Shown: positions 14,007 through 60,483, numbered from the stretch's first letter. The stretch is 64,000 nucleotides of DNA from Proteobacteria bacterium CG1_02_64_396 (GCA_001872725.1 MNWR01000081.1:33849-97848); one strand, 5' to 3'. A program made the numbers and translations. Notes: a model not told the origin generated them from the sequence alone.

Positions 14007-15179
14007 ATGAGCCAGGGTAACTTCCTCTTTACCTCCGAATCGGTTACCGAAGGCCACCCCGACAAGGTTGCCGACCGAATCTCCGATTCGATTCTGGACG
14101 CCATTCTTGCCCAAGATCCCTACGGGCGGGTCGCCTGCGAAACCCTGGTGACCACGGGTCTGGTGGTGGTGGCCGGTGAGATCACCACCAAGGCCAACAT
14201 CGATTATCCCGCCATCGCCCGCCAGGCAGTGAAGGAGATCGGCTACAACTCTTCGGCCATGGGGTTCGATTGGGAGTCGTGCGGGGTGTTGGTCACGATC
14301 GATAAACAGTCGCCCGACATTGCCCAGGGGGTGAACGAGGGGCAGGGGCTCGATCCCGACATGGGGGCGGGCGACCAGGGGTTGATGTTCGGTTATGCCA
14401 GCAACGAGACCGAAACCCTGATGCCGGCGCCGATCTATTACGCCCACCGTCTAGCCGAGCGGCAGGCGCGGGTCCGTCACGATGGCACCGTCCCCTTCTT
14501 CCGTCCCGACGCCAAAACTCAGGTCACCTTCCGCTACGAAAACCACAAGCCGGTGGCGATCGACACCATCGTCGTCTCGACCCAGCACACCCCCGAGGCG
14601 ACCCACGCCCAGGTCAAAGAGGCGGTGATGGAAGAGGTCGTCAAACCGGTGCTGGGCGAAACCGGCTTTTTGCACGCCGATACCGAGTACTACATCAACC
14701 CGACCGGGCGGTTTGTTATCGGCGGCCCCGTGGGCGACTGCGGCGTCACCGGTCGTAAGATCATCGTCGATACCTACGGCGGGTTCGGCCACCACGGCGG
14801 CGGCGCCTTCTCGGGCAAGGATCCCACCAAGGTCGACCGCTCGGCCTGCTACATGGCCCGTTATGTGGCCAAAAACATCGTCGCCGCCGGGCTGGCCGAC
14901 CGCTGCGAGGTTCAGGTCGCCTACGCCATCGGGGTCGCCAAGCCGCTGTCGGTCATGGTCAACACCTTCGGCACCGGCAAGATCGACGAAGCCCGTCTTG
15001 CTCAGATCGTGCGCGAGGAGTTCGACCTGCGTCCCAAGGGGCTGATCATGGCGCTCGATCTGCTGCGCCCGATCTACAGGCAGACCTCCTCCTATGGACA
15101 CTTCGGCCGCGAGCTGGCCGATTTCACCTGGGAAAAAACCGACCGGATCGCCTCGCTGCGCAGCCGGGCCGGACTCTGA
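14007..15179 (+). CDS. metK: S-adenosylmethionine synthetase
   Basis: [39 protein letters not shown] motifs. ATG at 14007 with GGAG 10 nt upstream; the track ORF starts 15 nt earlier. Confidence 0.9.
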
Positions 15180-15195
15180 TCCACGTTTGAGATTT

Positions 15196-15285
15196 TCCCC
15201 GGCGAGGGGCGTTGCGACGGCGGGATCTCCCGCTGCCAGGCTCGCCGGGGACCCATCCTTGTTGCAACGGCGCCCGCCAACCGAA
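15196..15285 (+). promoter_or_regulatory. Candidate SAH riboswitch in the metK-ahcY intergenic region
   Basis: Blocks GGCGAGGGGCGUUGCGAC ... CCAGGCUCGCC ... GCAACGGCGCCCGCC resemble the SAH-riboswitch consensus as recalled. Complementary pairs GGCGAG/CUCGCC and GUUGC/GCAAC, and an inner hairpin GCGGGA-UCUCCCGC. It ends just before the ahcY SD GAGGAG. Confidence 0.55.
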
Positions 15286-15297
15286 GAGGAGCATGCC

Positions 15298-16701
<1,404 letters not shown>

Positions 16702-19523: not shown

Positions 19524-21256
19524 GAAGTAGCCGCCTGTTCGGCGCGAAATTGCATGTGGTACAGCCCGGCGTAGGCGCCATTGCGGGCCAGAAGTTCGTC
19601 GTGTTTGCCCTCTTCGACGATCTCGCCGCGCTGCATCACCACGATCCGGTCGGCGTGGCGGATGGTCGACAAGCGGTGGGCGATCACCAGGGTGGTGCGC
19701 CCCACCATCAGCCGATCAATCGCCTGCTGCACCATCGCTTCCGATTCGCTATCGAGGGCCGATGTCGCCTCGTCGAGAATTAAAATCGGGGCATCCTTGA
19801 GTAGCGACCGGGCGATGGAGACCCGCTGCCGCTGCCCCCCGGAGAGTCGCCCCCCCCGCTCCCCGGCCAGCGCTTCGAATCGCTCGGGAATTTGCTCGAT
19901 GAATTCCAGTGCGAAAGCGTCGGCGGCGGCGGCGCGCACCTGCTCGGGCGAGACGTCGTCACGACCGTAGGCGATGTTCTCGTGCAGGGTTTCGTTGAAG
20001 AGGATCACCTCTTGAGTCACCAGGGCGATGCCGCCGCGCAGCGATTCAAGCTCCATGTCGCGGATGTCGACCCCCCCGATTTCGATGCTCCCCCCCTGGG
20101 GGTCGTAGAAACGGGGAATCAGGTTGGCCAAGGTCGACTTGCCCGAGCCCGATGCCCCTACCAGCGCCACCACTTCCCCTTGCCTGACGGTCAGATCGAT
20201 CCCCTTGAGCGCCTCCTCCTTGCTGTCGGGGTAGGCAAAACGCAGCCCCTTGATGGCAATGTCGCCGGTGGGACGGTTCAAAAGGCGCTGCCCGGTGTTG
20301 GTTTCGGGGGGGCTATCGATGATGGCGAACACCCGGTCAGCGGCCGCCAATCCCTCATGCATCTTGTTGTTGAAGGTCGACAGCCGTTTGACCGGCTCAT
20401 AGACCATCAACAGAGCGGTGAGGAACGAAAAGAAATTGCCGGGGGTGGTGGTGCCGGCGATGACGTTGCTGCCGCCGTAGTAAACCACCAAGGCAATACC
20501 GAAGGAGGCAAACATCTCAACAATCGGGGAAGAGGTGGTGTTGTAGGTCTCGGTCTTGATGCCCAGGCGGGCCAGCTCGTCGACCATCTTGCGGAAACGT
20601 CCCGCCTCGTGCCTCTGCATGCCGAAGGCTTTAACAATTCGGATGCCCCCCAGGGTTTCTTCAAGGCGGGAGGTCAACATCCCCATGTTTTGGGCGGTTT
20701 GCTGAGCAATCTTTTTGATGCGCCTGGCGATGATGACCACCGGCATCATCGCCAGGGGGAAGACGATCAGGGTGTAAAAGGCGAGCAGCGGATCGCGGTA
20801 GATGACCAGGGCGACCAGAAACAGGGCGGTGAGCAGGTCGCGCACTGCGCCGGTCACCAGCATGGTTAACCCCGCCTCGATGGTCAGCACGTCATAGGTG
20901 ACCCGGCTCATCAATTGCCCCTTACCCTGACGGTCGATGACCGTCATGGGTAGGGAGAGGATGTGGGTGTACAGGTCGCTACGCAGCGCGGCGATCACCG
21001 AGTGCCGGGTTTTGGCCATCAACACACCCTGCCCGAAATAGGCCACCCCCTTGGTCGTGTAAATGGCGATGACGATCCAAGGGAGAATCACCAGCGCTTG
21101 CTCGTTCTTGGCGACAAAAACGTCGTCGAGAATGGGCTGAATGACGAAGGCGGTTCCAGCGGTGGCGGCGGCCACCACCACCATGCAGAGCATGGCGAGG
21201 ATCAGGGTCGAAACGTGGGGGCGCAGATACTGGAGCAGGCGGCGCAGGTGGTTCAT
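19520..21256 (-). CDS. msbA: Lipid A / lipid export ABC transporter, fused permease-ATPase (MsbA-like)
   Basis: Six N-terminal TM helices; Walker A GASGSGKST; signature LSGGQRQRVSIARSLL; Walker B ILILDEATSALD. 578 aa. Confidence 0.8.
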   Translation of the reverse strand: MNHLRRLLQYLRPHVSTLILAMLCMVVVAAATAGTAFVIQPILDDVFVAKNEQALVILPWIVIAIYTTKGVAYFGQGVLMAKTRHSVIAALRSDLYTHILSLPMTVIDRQGKGQLMSRVTYDVLTIEAGLTMLVTGAVRDLLTALFLVALVIYRDPLLAFYTLIVFPLAMMPVVIIARRIKKIAQQTAQNMGMLTSRLEETLGGIRIVKAFGMQRHEAGRFRKMVDELARLGIKTETYNTTSSPIVEMFASFGIALVVYYGGSNVIAGTTTPGNFFSFLTALLMVYEPVKRLSTFNNKMHEGLAAADRVFAIIDSPPETNTGQRLLNRPTGDIAIKGLRFAYPDSKEEALKGIDLTVRQGEVVALVGASGSGKSTLANLIPRFYDPQGGSIEIGGVDIRDMELESLRGGIALVTQEVILFNETLHENIAYGRDDVSPEQVRAAAADAFALEFIEQIPERFEALAGERGGRLSGGQRQRVSIARSLLKDAPILILDEATSALDSESEAMVQQAIDRLMVGRTTLVIAHRLSTIRHADRIVVMQRGEIVEEGKHDELLARNGAYAGLYHMQFRAEQAATS

Positions 21257-47109: not shown

Positions 47110-47694
47110 ATGTCTGAATCACGTTTGATGTGCCGCGAGGATCTCGTTGCCGCCTGGGTCGATGGCGAGCTTGATCCCTTTGAGCTACGGGGCTTTCTGG
47201 AACACATCGAGGATTGTGCCCATTGCTGTGAGGCGATGGTCGAACAGCAGCAGGTTCGCGATCTCTTCCACCATCGCGCCGAGCAGGATCTGCCGGGCGG
47301 TATGCTGTCTTCCCGCCAATTTGTGGCGAGCGTCATGGGGGAGCTGCATCAAGCCGAAGAGGAACTCGAACTGAATGTTGTGGGAGAGCCCTCCACCCGC
47401 CAGGCGATGCGTCGCATGTGGACAGTCGCCGCCTCCCTGGTTGTCGTCGCCTCCGGGGTTTGGATGTGGCAGGGGCCTCAAGAAGAAACAGTCGCCAAAC
47501 GCATCACCAACCAACCCTCTGCCACCCAGATGGCCCAGCAGCCCGCCCCCAGCCTGCAGCAAGATGTTCGCCCCGCCGCTTTCACCCAGCACGAACAAGA
47601 TTCTCAGAACGATCCGCTCCATCGCATCACCCCCACCACCAGCCAGCGTGCCCCCGTTGTTTTCGAATCGATTCCCAATGCAGCCGGTCGCTGA
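47110..47694 (+). CDS. Anti-sigma factor (RseA/ChrR-like N-terminal anti-sigma domain, single TM)
   Basis: MCREDLVAAWVDGELDPFELRGFLEHIEDCAHCCEAMVEQQQV (anti-sigma N-domain with an HxxxCxxC-like Zn motif), TM WTVAASLVVVASGVW. Confidence 0.6.
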   Translation: MSESRLMCREDLVAAWVDGELDPFELRGFLEHIEDCAHCCEAMVEQQQVRDLFHHRAEQDLPGGMLSSRQFVASVMGELHQAEEELELNVVGEPSTRQAMRRMWTVAASLVVVASGVWMWQGPQEETVAKRITNQPSATQMAQQPAPSLQQDVRPAAFTQHEQDSQNDPLHRITPTTSQRAPVVFESIPNAAGR

Positions 47695-53320: not shown

Positions 53321-54013
53321 TTACTGTATCACCGGTGGTTTTGGCGGGTGGAAAAACGCGGCCCACTCACCCGCACCACCCGATTCACCGACCGCCCCCA
53401 CCGCTGCGTGCCTGTGCCACCGCCTCCCGTACGATGAAATGTAAATCCTCTTTCGACACATCGACCGGTGAGCCGAGTTTACGCAGCGCAACGTCGAGGT
53501 CTTCATCGCGCACCAGGTCGGGGCGGGGGAGGGGGTGGGGCCAAGATGGGGGTGGCTGCGGTGCAGCACCCAACGGTTGAGCACCAGCCCAAGCAGGGCG
53601 AGTAACGCGACGTTGATCCCCACCGGCAGCAACAAGACATCCCAACCGATCCCATGTTCGTGTCCCGCCAGTACCGCGATCAGGGCGGCGGCCCCTCCGG
53701 GGGGATGCAGGGAGCCGGTCAGTTGCATGGCGACCATCGCCAGGCCGGTGGCGAGCGCCAGGGCAAGGGGAAGATGGGGGACATACTGGACGCAAACGAT
53801 GCCGACGGCGGTGGAGATCAAGGTGCCGCCGACCACAGGCCAGGGCTGGGAAAGGGGGCTGAAGGGGATAGCGAAGATCAATAGCGCCGAGGCCCCCATC
53901 GAGGCGGTCATGATCGGGGTGACTTCGGGGGGGAGCAGCCAAAGGCAGGCCTCAGCCACCACCGCAATGGCGACCAGCGCGGCCAAAGCCGAACGGATCG
54001 CCTCCCGGTTCAT
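53321..54013 (-). CDS. HPP-family integral membrane protein
   Basis: 230 aa from the ATG at complement of 54011-54013 (GGGAG SD). HPPGG motif in a TM context. The track ORF's 119-aa 5' extension is rejected. Confidence 0.6.
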   Translation of the reverse strand: MNREAIRSALAALVAIAVVAEACLWLLPPEVTPIMTASMGASALLIFAIPFSPLSQPWPVVGGTLISTAVGIVCVQYVPHLPLALALATGLAMVAMQLTGSLHPPGGAAALIAVLAGHEHGIGWDVLLLPVGINVALLALLGLVLNRWVLHRSHPHLGPTPSPAPTWCAMKTSTLRCVNSAHRSMCRKRIYISSYGRRWHRHAAVGAVGESGGAGEWAAFFHPPKPPVIQ

Positions 54014-54026
54014 CTCCCGATGGCTT

Positions 54027-54195
54027 CTAGGAGTCTGTCGGACTTGAGATTGTCCTACTGCGCCGGCGGGTAATCGGTCCAAATTTCCCCGGTTTTTCGT
54101 CACATAGCCACCACTATGATCCTCAAAACCGTGAAAATTTGGCCTCGATTCCCCACTCGGCTCGCTACGGACGCTCAAGTCCGACAGGCTCCTAG
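54027..54195. repeat. 22-bp inverted repeat (1 mismatch) flanking about 125 bp
   Basis: CTAGGAGTCTGTCGGACTTGAG (54027-54048) vs CTCAAGTCCGACAGGCTCCTAG (54174-54195). The right arm overlaps the last codons and stop of the rrf2 gene. Confidence 0.6.
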
Positions 54196-54645
54196 GGGAA
54201 AGGCCCCCAACGAGGGGGGTAGGCCGAGCAGGTGTTGGATCGAGGCCGGTTCGGTCACCACATCGGCCAGGGTGTGGCGTTCGAGCACCCCGAGGAAGGC
54301 ATTTTGGGCGTCCAGGAGTACCCCCTTGAGGGTGCAATGGTGCAGCAGGGGGCAGTGGGGTTTGGCACAATCGATGGGGTCCAAGGTGACCTCGACCTGC
54401 CGCACCACCTGCCCGATGTTGATCTCTTCCGGCGCCATCCCCAGCGCGATTCCCCCCCCTTTGCCCCGTGAGGTGTTCAGGTAGCCAAGTTTGCCCAGCT
54501 GCTGGACCACCTTGATGAGGTTGTTGCGGCTGATGTCGAAGTGTTCGGCGATCTCATTGATGGTGGTCGTCGAGCCATCGGTGGGACGCAGCGCCATGTA
54601 AATCAACACACGCAGCGCGTAGTCGGTGTATCGGGTCAATTGCAT
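54175..54645 (-). CDS. nsrR: Rrf2-family transcriptional regulator (NsrR/IscR-like, 3-Cys cluster)
   Basis: MQLTRYTDYALRVLIYMAL...INEIAEHFDISRNNLIKVVQQLGKLGYL (wHTH) and CAKPHCPLLHHC cysteine cluster. ATG at complement of 54643-54645 with GAGGAG SD. Gene symbol reflects the neighbouring globin, not proof. Confidence 0.75.
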   Translation of the reverse strand: MQLTRYTDYALRVLIYMALRPTDGSTTTINEIAEHFDISRNNLIKVVQQLGKLGYLNTSRGKGGGIALGMAPEEINIGQVVRQVEVTLDPIDCAKPHCPLLHHCTLKGVLLDAQNAFLGVLERHTLADVVTEPASIQHLLGLPPSLGAFPLGACRT

Positions 54646-54752
54646 GGGGTTCTCCTCGCGGGAATTGATGCATTTCACCGGCATGATATGCCCTAGCAAC
54701 GATAAAGGGTCATGAACTCTTGTTCATCTCGATCCTCCGGTTCAATCGATTC

Positions 54753-55724
54753 TCACAGGCGCCCAAAGGCGTCGGCCAGAATGTCCTTCGAGGAGGCGCC
54801 GGCCAAAAACGTCTGTTTACGCAGCAGTTGCACCATGTCGGGTGCGCCGCACAAATAGGCCCGCCACCCCTTGAGGTTGGGAAACGCCTCTTTGATCAAG
54901 AGGTCCAGCGCCCCCTCGACCGCCCGCCCCACTTCAAGCCCCGCAACATCGAGGGCGCAGGGGTGGTAGTTGAAGTTGGGGTGCTGCGCCGCCAAGGCTT
55001 CGAGCTCTTCCATCAGGTAGAGCCCCTGGGCATCCCGCCCCCCGTGGAAGAGATGGATGATCCCACGGTGTTCCTGGCGCAGTGCCTCGCGGGCGATTCC
55101 GTAAAGCGGCGCCAACCCCGTGCCGGTGCCTGCCAGCAGCAGCGGTTGATCCTGATCCCCCGGCAGGTAGTAGCACTCCCCTTCCGGCCCTTGCAGCTCG
55201 ACGTAGTCCCCCTCCCGCAATTGGTCGTGAATCCAGTTGCTCATCACCCCGCCGGGGATCCGCCCGACGTGGAGGATCAACGCCTCTTCGATCCCCGGCA
55301 CGCTGGCCAGCGAATAGCTGCGTCCCAGGTTGGCGTCGCGCCACAGGTTGACGAACTGTCCCGGTTGGTAGGCAAAGGGGGATTCGGGTTGCAGCCGGAT
55401 TTCGACGATGCGCTCGGTGAGCGCCCGTTGGCCGGTGACCACGGCGGGGATGCGGGTCTGGGTGGTGGAGGGGAGCGCGACCGTCAGTTCGCCGGTGGGG
55501 TAGCAACTACAGGCCAGCAGGTAGCCCTGTTCCCGCTTGGCGGGGGAAAGGGTCCGCTGCGCCGCCTCGGGGATCGCGCCCTCGACCCCCTTCATCAGGC
55601 AGGTTTGGCAGACGCCGGAACGGCAGCCGTGGGGAATGGTGTGCCCTTGGGCAAGCAGGCCGTCGAGAAGGGAGATGCCTTCGGGAAGATCGACGCTGTC
55701 GCCATCAAAATGGATCTTGGGCAT
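54753..55724 (-). CDS. 2Fe-2S ferredoxin-FAD-NAD(P)H oxidoreductase (N-terminal plant-type ferredoxin, C-terminal FNR-like)
   Basis: CRSGVCQTCL 2Fe-2S motif, RSYSLAS FAD motif, LLAGTGTGLAPL NAD(P) motif. 323 aa from the ATG at complement of 55722-55724. Confidence 0.75.
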   Translation of the reverse strand: MPKIHFDGDSVDLPEGISLLDGLLAQGHTIPHGCRSGVCQTCLMKGVEGAIPEAAQRTLSPAKREQGYLLACSCYPTGELTVALPSTTQTRIPAVVTGQRALTERIVEIRLQPESPFAYQPGQFVNLWRDANLGRSYSLASVPGIEEALILHVGRIPGGVMSNWIHDQLREGDYVELQGPEGECYYLPGDQDQPLLLAGTGTGLAPLYGIAREALRQEHRGIIHLFHGGRDAQGLYLMEELEALAAQHPNFNYHPCALDVAGLEVGRAVEGALDLLIKEAFPNLKGWRAYLCGAPDMVQLLRKQTFLAGASSKDILADAFGRL

Positions 55725-55750
55725 GGGGGCTCCGGAAGATCGATCTTGGG

Positions 55751-55789
55751 TTGAAATAAAAACGGCGCGGGAGTTGCCCCTCCGCGCCG
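55751..55789 (-). terminator. Candidate intrinsic terminator/attenuator between the globin and reductase genes (minus-strand transcript)
   Basis: CGGCGCGG / CCGCGCCG 8-bp stem with an 11-nt loop; on the minus-strand RNA it is followed by UUUUUAUUUC. Confidence 0.45.
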
Positions 55790-55812
55790 CTTCGTGGTGC
55801 CACAAACCAGCC

Positions 55813-56178
55813 TTAGCGGCTCAGGACATCGTCCCGGACCGATTCGGCGATGGCGGCGACCTGAGCGATGTCCTCATCGGGCACGCCCAGCTCTTTTAAG
55901 GTGCCGCCCAGGTGCTCGATCACGACATCGACGTGGAGGTCGTTCATGCCCTGCTCCACCAGGTGAGCGTGACCCTCACGCATGTCCTTGCCGGTGTAAT
56001 TGTTGGGGCCGCCGAAGACCATGGTCAAAAACGCCTTCTGCTTAGCCGCTTGGCGATCCATGTCGACCGAATCGAAGAAGCGGGCGACCCGGTCGTCGGC
56101 CAGCATCTTGCGGTAGAAAATGTCGACTGCGGCATTCACAGCCGCTTCACCACCAAGGCGTTCGTACAAAGTGGACAT
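55813..56178 (-). CDS. glbN: Truncated hemoglobin, group I (trHbN/GlbN-like)
   Basis: 121 aa; MSTLYERLGGEAAVNAAVDIFYRKMLADDRVARFF...HAHL 2/2-globin pattern. GGAGG SD. Confidence 0.85.
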   Translation of the reverse strand: MSTLYERLGGEAAVNAAVDIFYRKMLADDRVARFFDSVDMDRQAAKQKAFLTMVFGGPNNYTGKDMREGHAHLVEQGMNDLHVDVVIEHLGGTLKELGVPDEDIAQVAAIAESVRDDVLSR

Positions 56179-56248
56179 GGGGTTTCCTCCAGTTGGAAAA
56201 AGGATTGAGGTGCAACGTGGGGAGAGCCTAAAAGAAGTTTGTTTGAGG

Positions 56249-56269
56249 ATGCAACTTAAATTTCAGCAT
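56249..56269. promoter_or_regulatory. Candidate Rrf2/NsrR-type operator in the glbN upstream region
   Basis: ATGCAACTTAAATTTCAGCAT: ATGC...GCAT ends around an AT-rich centre, resembling the ATGCAT-containing NsrR half-sites as recalled. About 70 nt upstream of the glbN ATG. A GATGCATTT half-site also lies upstream of rrf2 (54665-54675). Confidence 0.35.
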
Positions 56270-56504
56270 TAGAACTCTTGAATATCTGAGTGGGTCGCGG
56301 GCGCCTCAACGTTCGTCAGCTGGAACGTCGCGGCAGAGGTATTGGGGTGGGGGGAAGCAGGTTCAGGCCACATGTAGGGGGCCGGTTTGAAGGGCTCATA
56401 CAGGGGACATATCCAAGCATCTCCATCTCGAACGCCCCCTTTCCACCGCAAACCGACGCCCCTACAAAAACCTGGGGGGCCTCCCCGCCCCTTCGGCAAC
56501 CTCC

Positions 56505-59664: not shown

Positions 59665-60483
<819 letters not shown>

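Follow-up and report, generated by a model that had tools for sequence, protein, structure and literature searches.

The 64,000-nucleotide stretch of Proteobacteria bacterium CG1_02_64_396 analyzed here (GCA_001872725.1 MNWR01000081.1:33849-97848; hereafter the window) carries, between positions 54175 and 56290, three co-directional genes on its minus strand that encode, in this order, a group I truncated hemoglobin (trHb; glbN), a reductase combining a [2Fe-2S] ferredoxin, a flavin adenine dinucleotide (FAD) and a nicotinamide adenine dinucleotide (NAD) domain, and an NsrR-like Rrf2 regulator. The genes present form a real and widely conserved bacterial module, composed of a small hemoglobin, its own reductase and a nitric oxide (NO)-type sensor, and it is likely that the locus specifies a two-component NO dioxygenase together with its own NO-sensing repressor. 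The idea of such an enzyme is not new. For Legionella, an operon of glbN and a ferredoxin reductase gene had already been predicted to be the only target of NsrR (Rodionov et al. 2005, PMC1274295), and this prediction was later restated as evidence for ferredoxin reductases as electron donors of trHbs (Gardner 2012, PMC3820574). What is added here is the breadth of conservation of the module and the regulatory peculiarities of the window, which constitutes one more member of the family with a layout that has possibly been weakened.

The trio had been recognized in a sequence-only reading of this DNA, which described a trHbN-like globin gene, a gene for a three-domain 2Fe-2S/FAD/NAD reductase lying 88 nt further on and a three-cysteine Rrf2 gene of the NsrR type, all on the minus strand, and interpreted them as a split version of the NO-detoxification logic of single-chain flavohemoglobins. 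Gene calls and Pfam searches (Table 1), together with the protein comparisons detailed below, agree with each of these assignments, and the split logic is supported by synteny, by the operators of relatives and by the identities of the proteins. The 88-nt distance is exact when the reductase is read from the ATG at 55724; Met1 of all homologs aligns with this codon, which for this reason was preferred to the TTG at 55805 returned by a mechanical open reading frame (ORF) call. A further 107 nt separate the reductase gene from rrf2, for which the ATG at 54645 was judged a better start than the TTG at 54699.

In order to describe the conservation of this arrangement, 27 reductase homologs were aligned, one genome per species was scanned and the best 80 loci in other species were retained (loci and contigs are cited by their L numbers). 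These loci were the ones nearest to the query reductase, and the counts given here describe its subfamily, not all ferredoxin-FNR reductases. A glbN gene lies directly upstream of the orthologous reductase gene, on the same strand, in 79 of the 80 species, with reductases that are 43-53% identical to that of the window, and this arrangement is far beyond chance. The gap between the two genes is at most 32 nt in 65 of the 79 glbN-bearing species, and the 88-nt and 107-nt gaps of the window are unusual compared with the ~10-30 nt seen in relatives. An Rrf2 gene is found within 5 kb in 62 of the 80 species, divergent from glbN in 46 of them and downstream and co-directional, as in the window, in 16. 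Pairwise identities of globins and reductases are correlated (r = 0.74), consistent with inheritance of the two genes as a unit. Carriers among the Gamma- and Betaproteobacteria include Methylobacter, Methylomonas, Methylococcus capsulatus, Gallionella, Sideroxydans and Sulfuriferula, and the module is also present in Myxococcota (Archangium, Hyalangium, Vitiosangium), Hydrogenedentota, Phycisphaerae (Phycisphaeraceae) and Acidobacteriota (Blastocatellia). Proteins identical to those of the window were found on 21 contigs from groundwater and other metagenomes. The next-closest reductase among 5.8 billion proteins searched is just 55% identical, and the lineage is therefore sparsely sampled. 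As a separate observation, six Methylobacter loci (L020, L022, L025, L029, L030 and L054) harbor a second, convergent glbN gene less than 5 kb from the first pair, adjoined in four of them (L020, L022, L025 and L029) by a second copy of the reductase gene.

The GlbN protein matches PF01152 with 66.4 bits (cut-off 21) over residues 3-118, and its best solved relatives are Synechocystis GlbN (1s69, E-value 3.8e-35, ~55% identity), the Tetrahymena trHb, Chlamydomonas THB1 and M. tuberculosis HbN. The 26 top solved matches, among them that of Paramecium, precede the first Geobacillus entry, which is followed by YjbI and HbO, with E-values of 1.5e-8 or weaker. The Geobacillus and YjbI entries are presumably group II-type truncated hemoglobins, and the top solved relatives are all of group I. 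Its key residues are the distal Tyr22 (B10), Gln43 (E7) and Gln47 (E11), the proximal His70 (F8), and Lys46 (E10). Tyr-B10, Gln-E7, Gln-E11 and His-F8 are unchanged in 80 of 80 orthologs, as is the Gly56-Gly57 pair, and the Gly9-Gly10 hinge is nearly as constant (Gly9 in 80/80, Gly10 in 79/80). The combination of Tyr-B10, Gln-E7 and Gln-E11 is what we take to be the NO-dioxygenase pocket of trHbN, and heme binding and NO dioxygenase activity are predicted for GlbN. The E10 position is occupied by Lys in all 80 orthologs and aligns with His46 of Synechocystis GlbN. In the alignment to solved relatives, GlbN presents no His near its C-terminus and no equivalents of His46 or His117, so the protein falls outside the cyanoglobin subtype.

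The reductase comprises Fer2 (residues 10-77), FAD_binding_6 (105-186) and NAD_binding_1 (199-302) domains and retains the motifs expected of each, namely a [2Fe-2S] motif Cys34-x4-Cys39-x2-Cys42 completed by Cys72, an FAD motif R135-x-Y137-S138, the NAD(P)H motif GTGTGLAP and the C-terminal Phe320. Ten of these positions (C34, C39, C42, C72, R135, S138, T200, G203, P206 and F320) are invariant across 80 of 80 species, and Y137 (77/80), G199 (73/80) and G201 (79/80) are nearly so. The closest solved relative is 5ogx (1.5e-42), deposited under the name 'Cytochrome P450 reductase' and therefore serving another heme protein; we take it to be GcoB, the partner of the P450 GcoA. It is followed by BenC (1krh), the carbazole dioxygenase reductase, TmoF (4wqm), Fre and the reductase half of E. 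coli Hmp (1gvh, 1.6e-15). Homology of the FAD/NAD half to that of flavohemoglobins is also evident in a score of 81.7 bits against the Hmp model. All named NCBIfam equivalog cut-offs lie above the scores of this protein, the best being PRK05713 (214.9 bits versus 338), with BenC at 135 versus 430 and the others, MmoC and PaaE included, likewise far short. The reductase therefore belongs to a subfamily of its own, delimited by the association with glbN.

The third protein scores 120.9 bits against PF02082 and 110 bits against TIGR00738 (cut-off 73), and NCBIfam models rank it as NsrR (137.1 bits), ahead of RirA (105) and IscR (48). Its best solved relative is the Streptomyces NsrR, ScNsrR (5n07, 1e-19). 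Asp8, Cys93, Cys98 and Cys104, the last three arranged as C-x4-C-x5-C, align with Asp8 and the three Cys of ScNsrR, which we take to be its cluster ligands; the same Cys are replaced by Ala in the 5n08 variant. All 64 Rrf2 proteins linked to glbN retain the three Cys and all but one (63 of 64) retain Asp8, and NsrR is the best model for seven of the eight regulators sampled from relatives, the remaining one, from a myxobacterium, scoring slightly higher with the RirA model. Where relatives present SRNHLVK in the recognition helix, the window protein reads SRNNLIK, with an Asn at position 42 (codon 54520-54522). The Asn cannot be a sequencing error, because independent metagenomes yield the identical protein. 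The equivalent His (His42 of ScNsrR, His41 of StNsrR) touches the DNA backbone in both ScNsrR and StNsrR (PMC10783083). Two further observations concern this group of regulators. In one gammaproteobacterial metagenome-assembled genome (MAG), two NsrR-like Rrf2 genes (L015, 3811-4344 and 5929-6459) flank the glbN-reductase pair on the same strand, and their products are the closest relatives of the window regulator (55-57% identity). The Cys spacing is C-x4-C-x5-C in the window, L015 and L019, and C-x7/8-C-x5-C in most divergent or myxobacterial glbN-linked regulators (L050, L017, L081, L020, L018, L073 and L043). The former is the pattern of E. coli NsrR, and the latter resembles that of RirA. 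To judge from these sequences, the glbN-linked loci harbor two regulator subtypes sharing one operator type.

The regions spanning 220 nt upstream of each glbN gene were scored against the E. coli-type NsrR consensus AAGATGCATTTnAAATGCATCTT, and a match at 16 or more of its 22 positions was counted as a box. Such boxes were found in 59 of 78 upstream regions, versus 3 of 2340 shuffles, and eight loci reach 21 of 22 positions. They accompany 54 of the 62 loci with an adjacent Rrf2 gene and 5 of the 17 without one, and the consensus derived from them is AAGATGyATTTnAAATrCATCTT. In Acinetobacter baumannii, experiments have shown that NsrR represses a globin gene through the same box (PMC11836069). 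The operators of relatives thus provide strong comparative evidence that the module, family-wide, would respond to NO.

The window departs from this pattern. Its counterpart, at 56235-56257, is centered ~68 nt before the glbN ATG, the position of the canonical boxes in relatives with nsrR downstream, and its left half-site AAGTTGCAT (56249-56257) is good and identical in L015 and L019, with a decayed right half. The site obtains 8.9-10.6 bits with a position weight matrix (PWM), compared with 20.2-42 bits for the real sites of relatives, and its score is reached by 8 of 2000 local shuffles. Another candidate (54665-54687), located 20-42 nt upstream of the rrf2 ATG, has a score reached by 25 of 2000 local shuffles. 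It contains GATGCATTT at 54667-54675, the sole copy of this sequence in the 64 kb; since chance alone should supply about one such copy (42 of 100 shuffles), the information it carries lies in its position. The highest-scoring half-site of the 64 kb, AAGATCCATTT (55708-55718, 10 of 11 positions), lies five nt inside the reductase gene, within an inverted repeat (55706-55748) that also includes the perfect palindrome AAGATCGATCTT. Altogether, three of the top eight half-site matches in the 64 kb fall at the three gene starts (binomial P ~0.002, computed post hoc). The usual 11-1-11 operator has here decayed to half-sites, and repression is therefore probably weaker or organized differently, which makes NO-dependent regulation less certain in the window than in its relatives. 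Two other matches were set aside: AAGATGCAT at 20357, inside a 578-aa ORF and taken as chance, and 47357-47379, the second-best 23-nt PWM match (7.2 bits, 15/22), which overlaps the start of an ORF with a RseC/MucC domain and has a score in the shuffled range.

Regarding the DNA elements that had been proposed from the sequence, the half-site upstream of rrf2 is indeed present, as is the hairpin with a U-tract between glbN and the reductase gene (55754-55793). The palindrome described upstream of glbN as ATGCA...TGCAT does not hold up, for the sequence there is ATGCT-N11-TGCAT, with trivial arms of just 4 nt (ATGC/GCAT). The hairpin has a stem of 12-15 pairs and a folding energy, taken alone, of ~-21 (-20.8) kcal/mol. 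A consensus terminator scan missed it, probably because loops were limited to 8 nt. No conserved attenuator was found among the 13 other species with long gaps, which often have strong hairpins in this position and a U-tract only in L056, and the terminator-like hairpin of the window is hence a lineage-specific, unconserved feature. Its structure makes attenuated read-through plausible, and transcripts would then probably contain more globin than reductase message. A consensus scan for sigma-70 promoters returned no convincing match in the three intergenic gaps, its sole match lying inside glbN, and a promoter spotted by eye before rrf2 (TTGCTA-16-TGAAAT) was considered too weak. Neither the hairpin nor the repeat downstream of rrf2 (see below) corresponds to a known RNA family, according to Rfam searches of the whole window at gathering thresholds and a sensitive scan of 53950-54260, in which a miRNA match was attributed to chance.

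Taken together, these elements suggest a plausible mode of action. NAD(P)H would reduce the FAD of the reductase, which would hand single electrons to the N-terminal [2Fe-2S] domain, and this domain would in turn re-reduce the ferric heme of GlbN, taking the place of the direct FAD-to-heme contact of single-chain flavohemoglobins. Oxy-ferrous GlbN would then turn NO into nitrate. The Rrf2 protein would act as an NsrR-type Fe-S repressor, released from its promoter upon NO damage to the cluster, and the nitrite or nitrate formed may leave the cell through the HPP-family membrane protein whose gene follows.

Several points weigh against a two-component NO dioxygenase under NO control at this locus. 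Truncated hemoglobins catalyse other reactions too, in vitro. The regulator falls short of the NCBIfam NsrR equivalog cut-off (137.1 versus 182 bits) and is unique among 64 glbN-linked regulators in carrying Asn42, with His in the other 63. No canonical operator was found in the 64 kb with the 23-nt PWM, which returned just 14/22 and 15/22 matches upstream of glbN and rrf2, and the scores of the window operators (4-10 bits) are no higher than the best in some shuffled 64-kb windows. Given its composition, the hairpin region overall has an ordinary stability (z = -1.6). The literature searched yielded the 2005 prediction and the 2012 review but no biochemical or genetic test of any member of this globin-reductase family. 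It is possible, if on balance unlikely, that the same enzymes operate here under a regulation that has been rewired or lost, with looser repression of glbN, with constitutive glbN transcription ending at the hairpin, or with half-sites or other targets in use. Of 16 loci in which nsrR lies downstream, a box of at least 16/22 is lacking from the window alone; the unusual Asn replaces a His that contacts the DNA backbone, three of the eight best half-sites fall at the gene starts and both intergenic gaps have widened. Nevertheless, Asn would still be able to hydrogen-bond a phosphate, the half-site enrichment was noticed post hoc, and single half-sites reportedly serve E. coli NsrR at many targets (Partridge 2009, as cited in PMC11836069), in which light control may be intact. 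Possible uses of half-sites include autoregulation from the rrf2 promoter and a roadblock where the reductase gene begins. The rewiring reading concerns regulation alone and is compatible with the enzymatic one, and the operator decay and Asn42 fit weaker repression, half-site regulation and drift alike. A bolder proposal built on the same features holds that this lineage has re-engineered the module, with an H42N NsrR acting on half-sites at three gene starts, a terminator-set globin:reductase ratio and an HPP exporter, and that the pair represents the physiological reductase system that has long been sought for group I trHbs; we regard it as doubtful.

Other readings concern the chemistry of the pair or the identity of the regulator. 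The reductase could keep the heme ferrous for a different reaction, such as anaerobic reduction of NO or nitrite, turnover of hydroxylamine or peroxynitrite, or scavenging or delivery of O2. Carriers are often microaerophilic or inhabit hypoxic niches (Gallionella, Sideroxydans, methanotrophs, groundwater MAGs), the nearest solved relatives of the reductase serve oxygenases, and an NsrR-controlled globin of Acinetobacter has NO reductase in addition to NO dioxygenase activity (PMC11836069). This appears improbable given that NsrR operators indicate NO as the inducer and that the pocket presumed to confer NO dioxygenation is invariant, and most of the alternatives would still amount to detoxification of NO or other nitrogen oxides. 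Much less probable still is that the Rrf2 protein is a RirA- or IscR-type regulator of iron or Fe-S status and that the gene cluster serves the homeostasis of iron or heme and not the NO response. The equivalog shortfall, RirA as second-best model, the slight preference of one myxobacterial relative for RirA and the RirA-like Cys spacing of many divergent-type relatives would fit such a role. They are countered by the ranking of NsrR as best model for the window protein and nearly all sampled relatives, by ScNsrR as best solved match, by the Cys pattern shared with E. coli NsrR, by an operator in relatives that is the gamma/beta-proteobacterial NsrR box and not an IscR or IRO box, and by the absence of adjoining isc or suf genes. 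A two-component NO dioxygenase with its own NO-sensing repressor remains the reading that we favor.

Table 1. Coordinates of the genes and DNA elements of the module and its surroundings, counted from the first nucleotide of the window.
Feature	Position	Strand	Basis
glbN, group I truncated hemoglobin, 121 aa	55813-56178	minus	PF01152 3.5e-18; GGAGGA ribosome-binding site
Three-domain reductase, 323 aa	54753-55724	minus	Fer2 + FAD_binding_6 + NAD_binding_1 (Pfam)
NsrR-like Rrf2 regulator, 156 aa, protein start MQLTRYTDYALR...	54175-54645	minus	PF02082 5e-35
HPP-family membrane protein	53321-54013	minus	PF04982 1.7e-40
Degenerate NsrR-type operator AAGTTGCATCCTCAAACAAACTT	56235-56257	minus	14/22 positions; best 23-nt PWM match in 64 kb
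NsrR-type half-site TTGATGCATTT with weak second half	54665-54687	plus	15/22 positions; third-best 23-nt PWM match in the window
Inverted repeat, 13-nt arms 85% complementary, around reductase ribosome-binding site and ATG	55706-55748	minus	repeat search
G+C-rich hairpin followed by UUUUUAUUU, intrinsic-terminator-like	55754-55793	minus	inverted repeat and folding
Dispersed palindromic repeat, MITE/REP-like, ~137 nt	54059-54195	minus	second copy and folding

The module is flanked upstream by a methyltransferase gene and leuA and downstream by the HPP gene, an aldose epimerase gene and a DUF167 gene. The DNA, of groundwater metagenome origin and with 62% G+C, also encodes outer-membrane and RseC proteins, which suggests a Gram-negative and probably proteobacterial host. 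The dispersed repeat listed in Table 1 (resembling miniature inverted-repeat transposable elements, MITE, or repetitive extragenic palindromic sequences, REP) provides the last 7 codons and the stop codon of rrf2 and occupies some of the spacer that precedes the HPP gene. Another copy, with 96% identity, is found on a contig of the same species (L001, 9445-9581). With a minimum free energy of -63.8 kcal/mol (z = -4.5, 0 of 200 shuffles as stable), the repeat probably forms a 3' stem-loop of the transcript. Contigs L003 to L006 end at window positions 54027-54087, and L001 departs at 54027, continuing with HIT, Ppnp and cytochrome-b genes in place of HPP, which suggests either a repeat-driven assembly break or a strain rearrangement at this point. 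The HPP gene itself adjoins the glbN-reductase pair in 11 of the 80 other species (L012, L014, L029, L049, L050, L057, L062, L079, L080, L082 and L084), often in the same orientation. It is a facultative, recurrent companion of the module and may be its fourth component. Members of the HPP family transport nitrite in cyanobacteria and plastids (Maeda 2014, as cited in PMC7438415), and NO induces an HPP gene in Desulfovibrio (PMC5701242). Export of a nitrogen-oxide product by the HPP protein is plausible.

Two observations were made elsewhere in the window. The only whole-window Rfam match is an S-adenosylhomocysteine (SAH) riboswitch (RF01057, 15198-15282, plus strand, 59.8 bits versus a gathering threshold of 37), which overlaps the start of the ORF at 15094-16701 and probably lies upstream of the true start of that gene. 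At 59665-59760 (plus strand), a run of GTC/GTG codons encodes the poly-Val N-terminus of a DUF2726/zinc-ribbon-type ORF and reads as His-Asp repeats on the opposite strand; the gene is called at 267, 271 and 272 aa in contigs of the same species, and its length may vary.

Whether NO dioxygenation can be assigned to truncated hemoglobins, and to non-transport hemoglobins in general, hinges above all on their physiological reductase, and the field has been described as having a greater need of cognate reductases than of additional ligand kinetics (Smagghe et al. 2008, PMC2323109). The survey presented here points to one 2Fe-2S/FAD/NAD reductase subfamily that is encoded nearly always right after a group I trHb, and usually under an NsrR operator, in at least five phyla. 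Cultured carriers such as Methylococcus capsulatus, Methylobacter, Methylomonas and Archangium make the 2005 prediction broadly testable. The distribution also suggests that two-component NO dioxygenases may be common in groundwater iron-oxidisers and methanotrophs, where NO of chemical or biological origin is likely.

The system most similar to the one described here is glbN-lpg2536 of Legionella pneumophila, in which a group I ('cyano') globin gene is likewise followed by a ferredoxin reductase gene under an NsrR operator, and whose products have been proposed to oxidise NO like Hmp. The Legionella system is itself a prediction, and it is likened to the window through its published description, no Legionella being among the 80 loci. 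In contrast to it, the window presents nsrR downstream and co-directional, a degenerate operator and a terminator-like hairpin. With E. coli Hmp (1gvh), the module has a homologous FAD/NAD part in common and would share the flow of electrons from NAD(P)H through FAD to heme, the conversion of NO and O2 to nitrate and NsrR control. Hmp, however, unites a 3-on-3 globin and its reductase in one chain that lacks an Fe-S center, whereas the window encodes two proteins, the globin being of the 2-on-2 type and the reductase having an extra [2Fe-2S] domain as a putative one-electron shuttle. The reductase in turn shares its domain order and cofactor motifs with 5ogx, BenC and TmoF, as well as with the NCBIfam families MmoC and PRK05713. 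The reductases of oxygenase systems serve oxygenases, whereas the proposed partner of the window reductase is a truncated hemoglobin. Synechocystis GlbN and Chlamydomonas THB1 have Tyr-B10, Gln-E7, Gln-E11 and His-F8 in common with the window GlbN, and THB1, to which a flavoprotein (nitrate reductase) supplies the electrons, likewise carries Lys at E10. Without His46 and His117, the window GlbN would presumably lack the bis-His coordination and the covalent heme link of the cyanobacterial protein, and it differs from both in having a dedicated reductase encoded next door. A physical union of the two functions is known in raphidophytes, where a trHb is naturally fused to nitrate reductase with an FNR-like reductase domain (PMC3820574). 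Finally, the Acinetobacter baumannii globin (PMC11836069, 2025) lacks an NADH domain, is repressed by an adjacent NsrR through AAGATGTATTTTAAATACATCT and acts as an NO dioxygenase with a separate reductase. It is a 3-on-3, Hmp-derived globin, whereas the window combines a 2-on-2 globin with a candidate reductase in the same operon.

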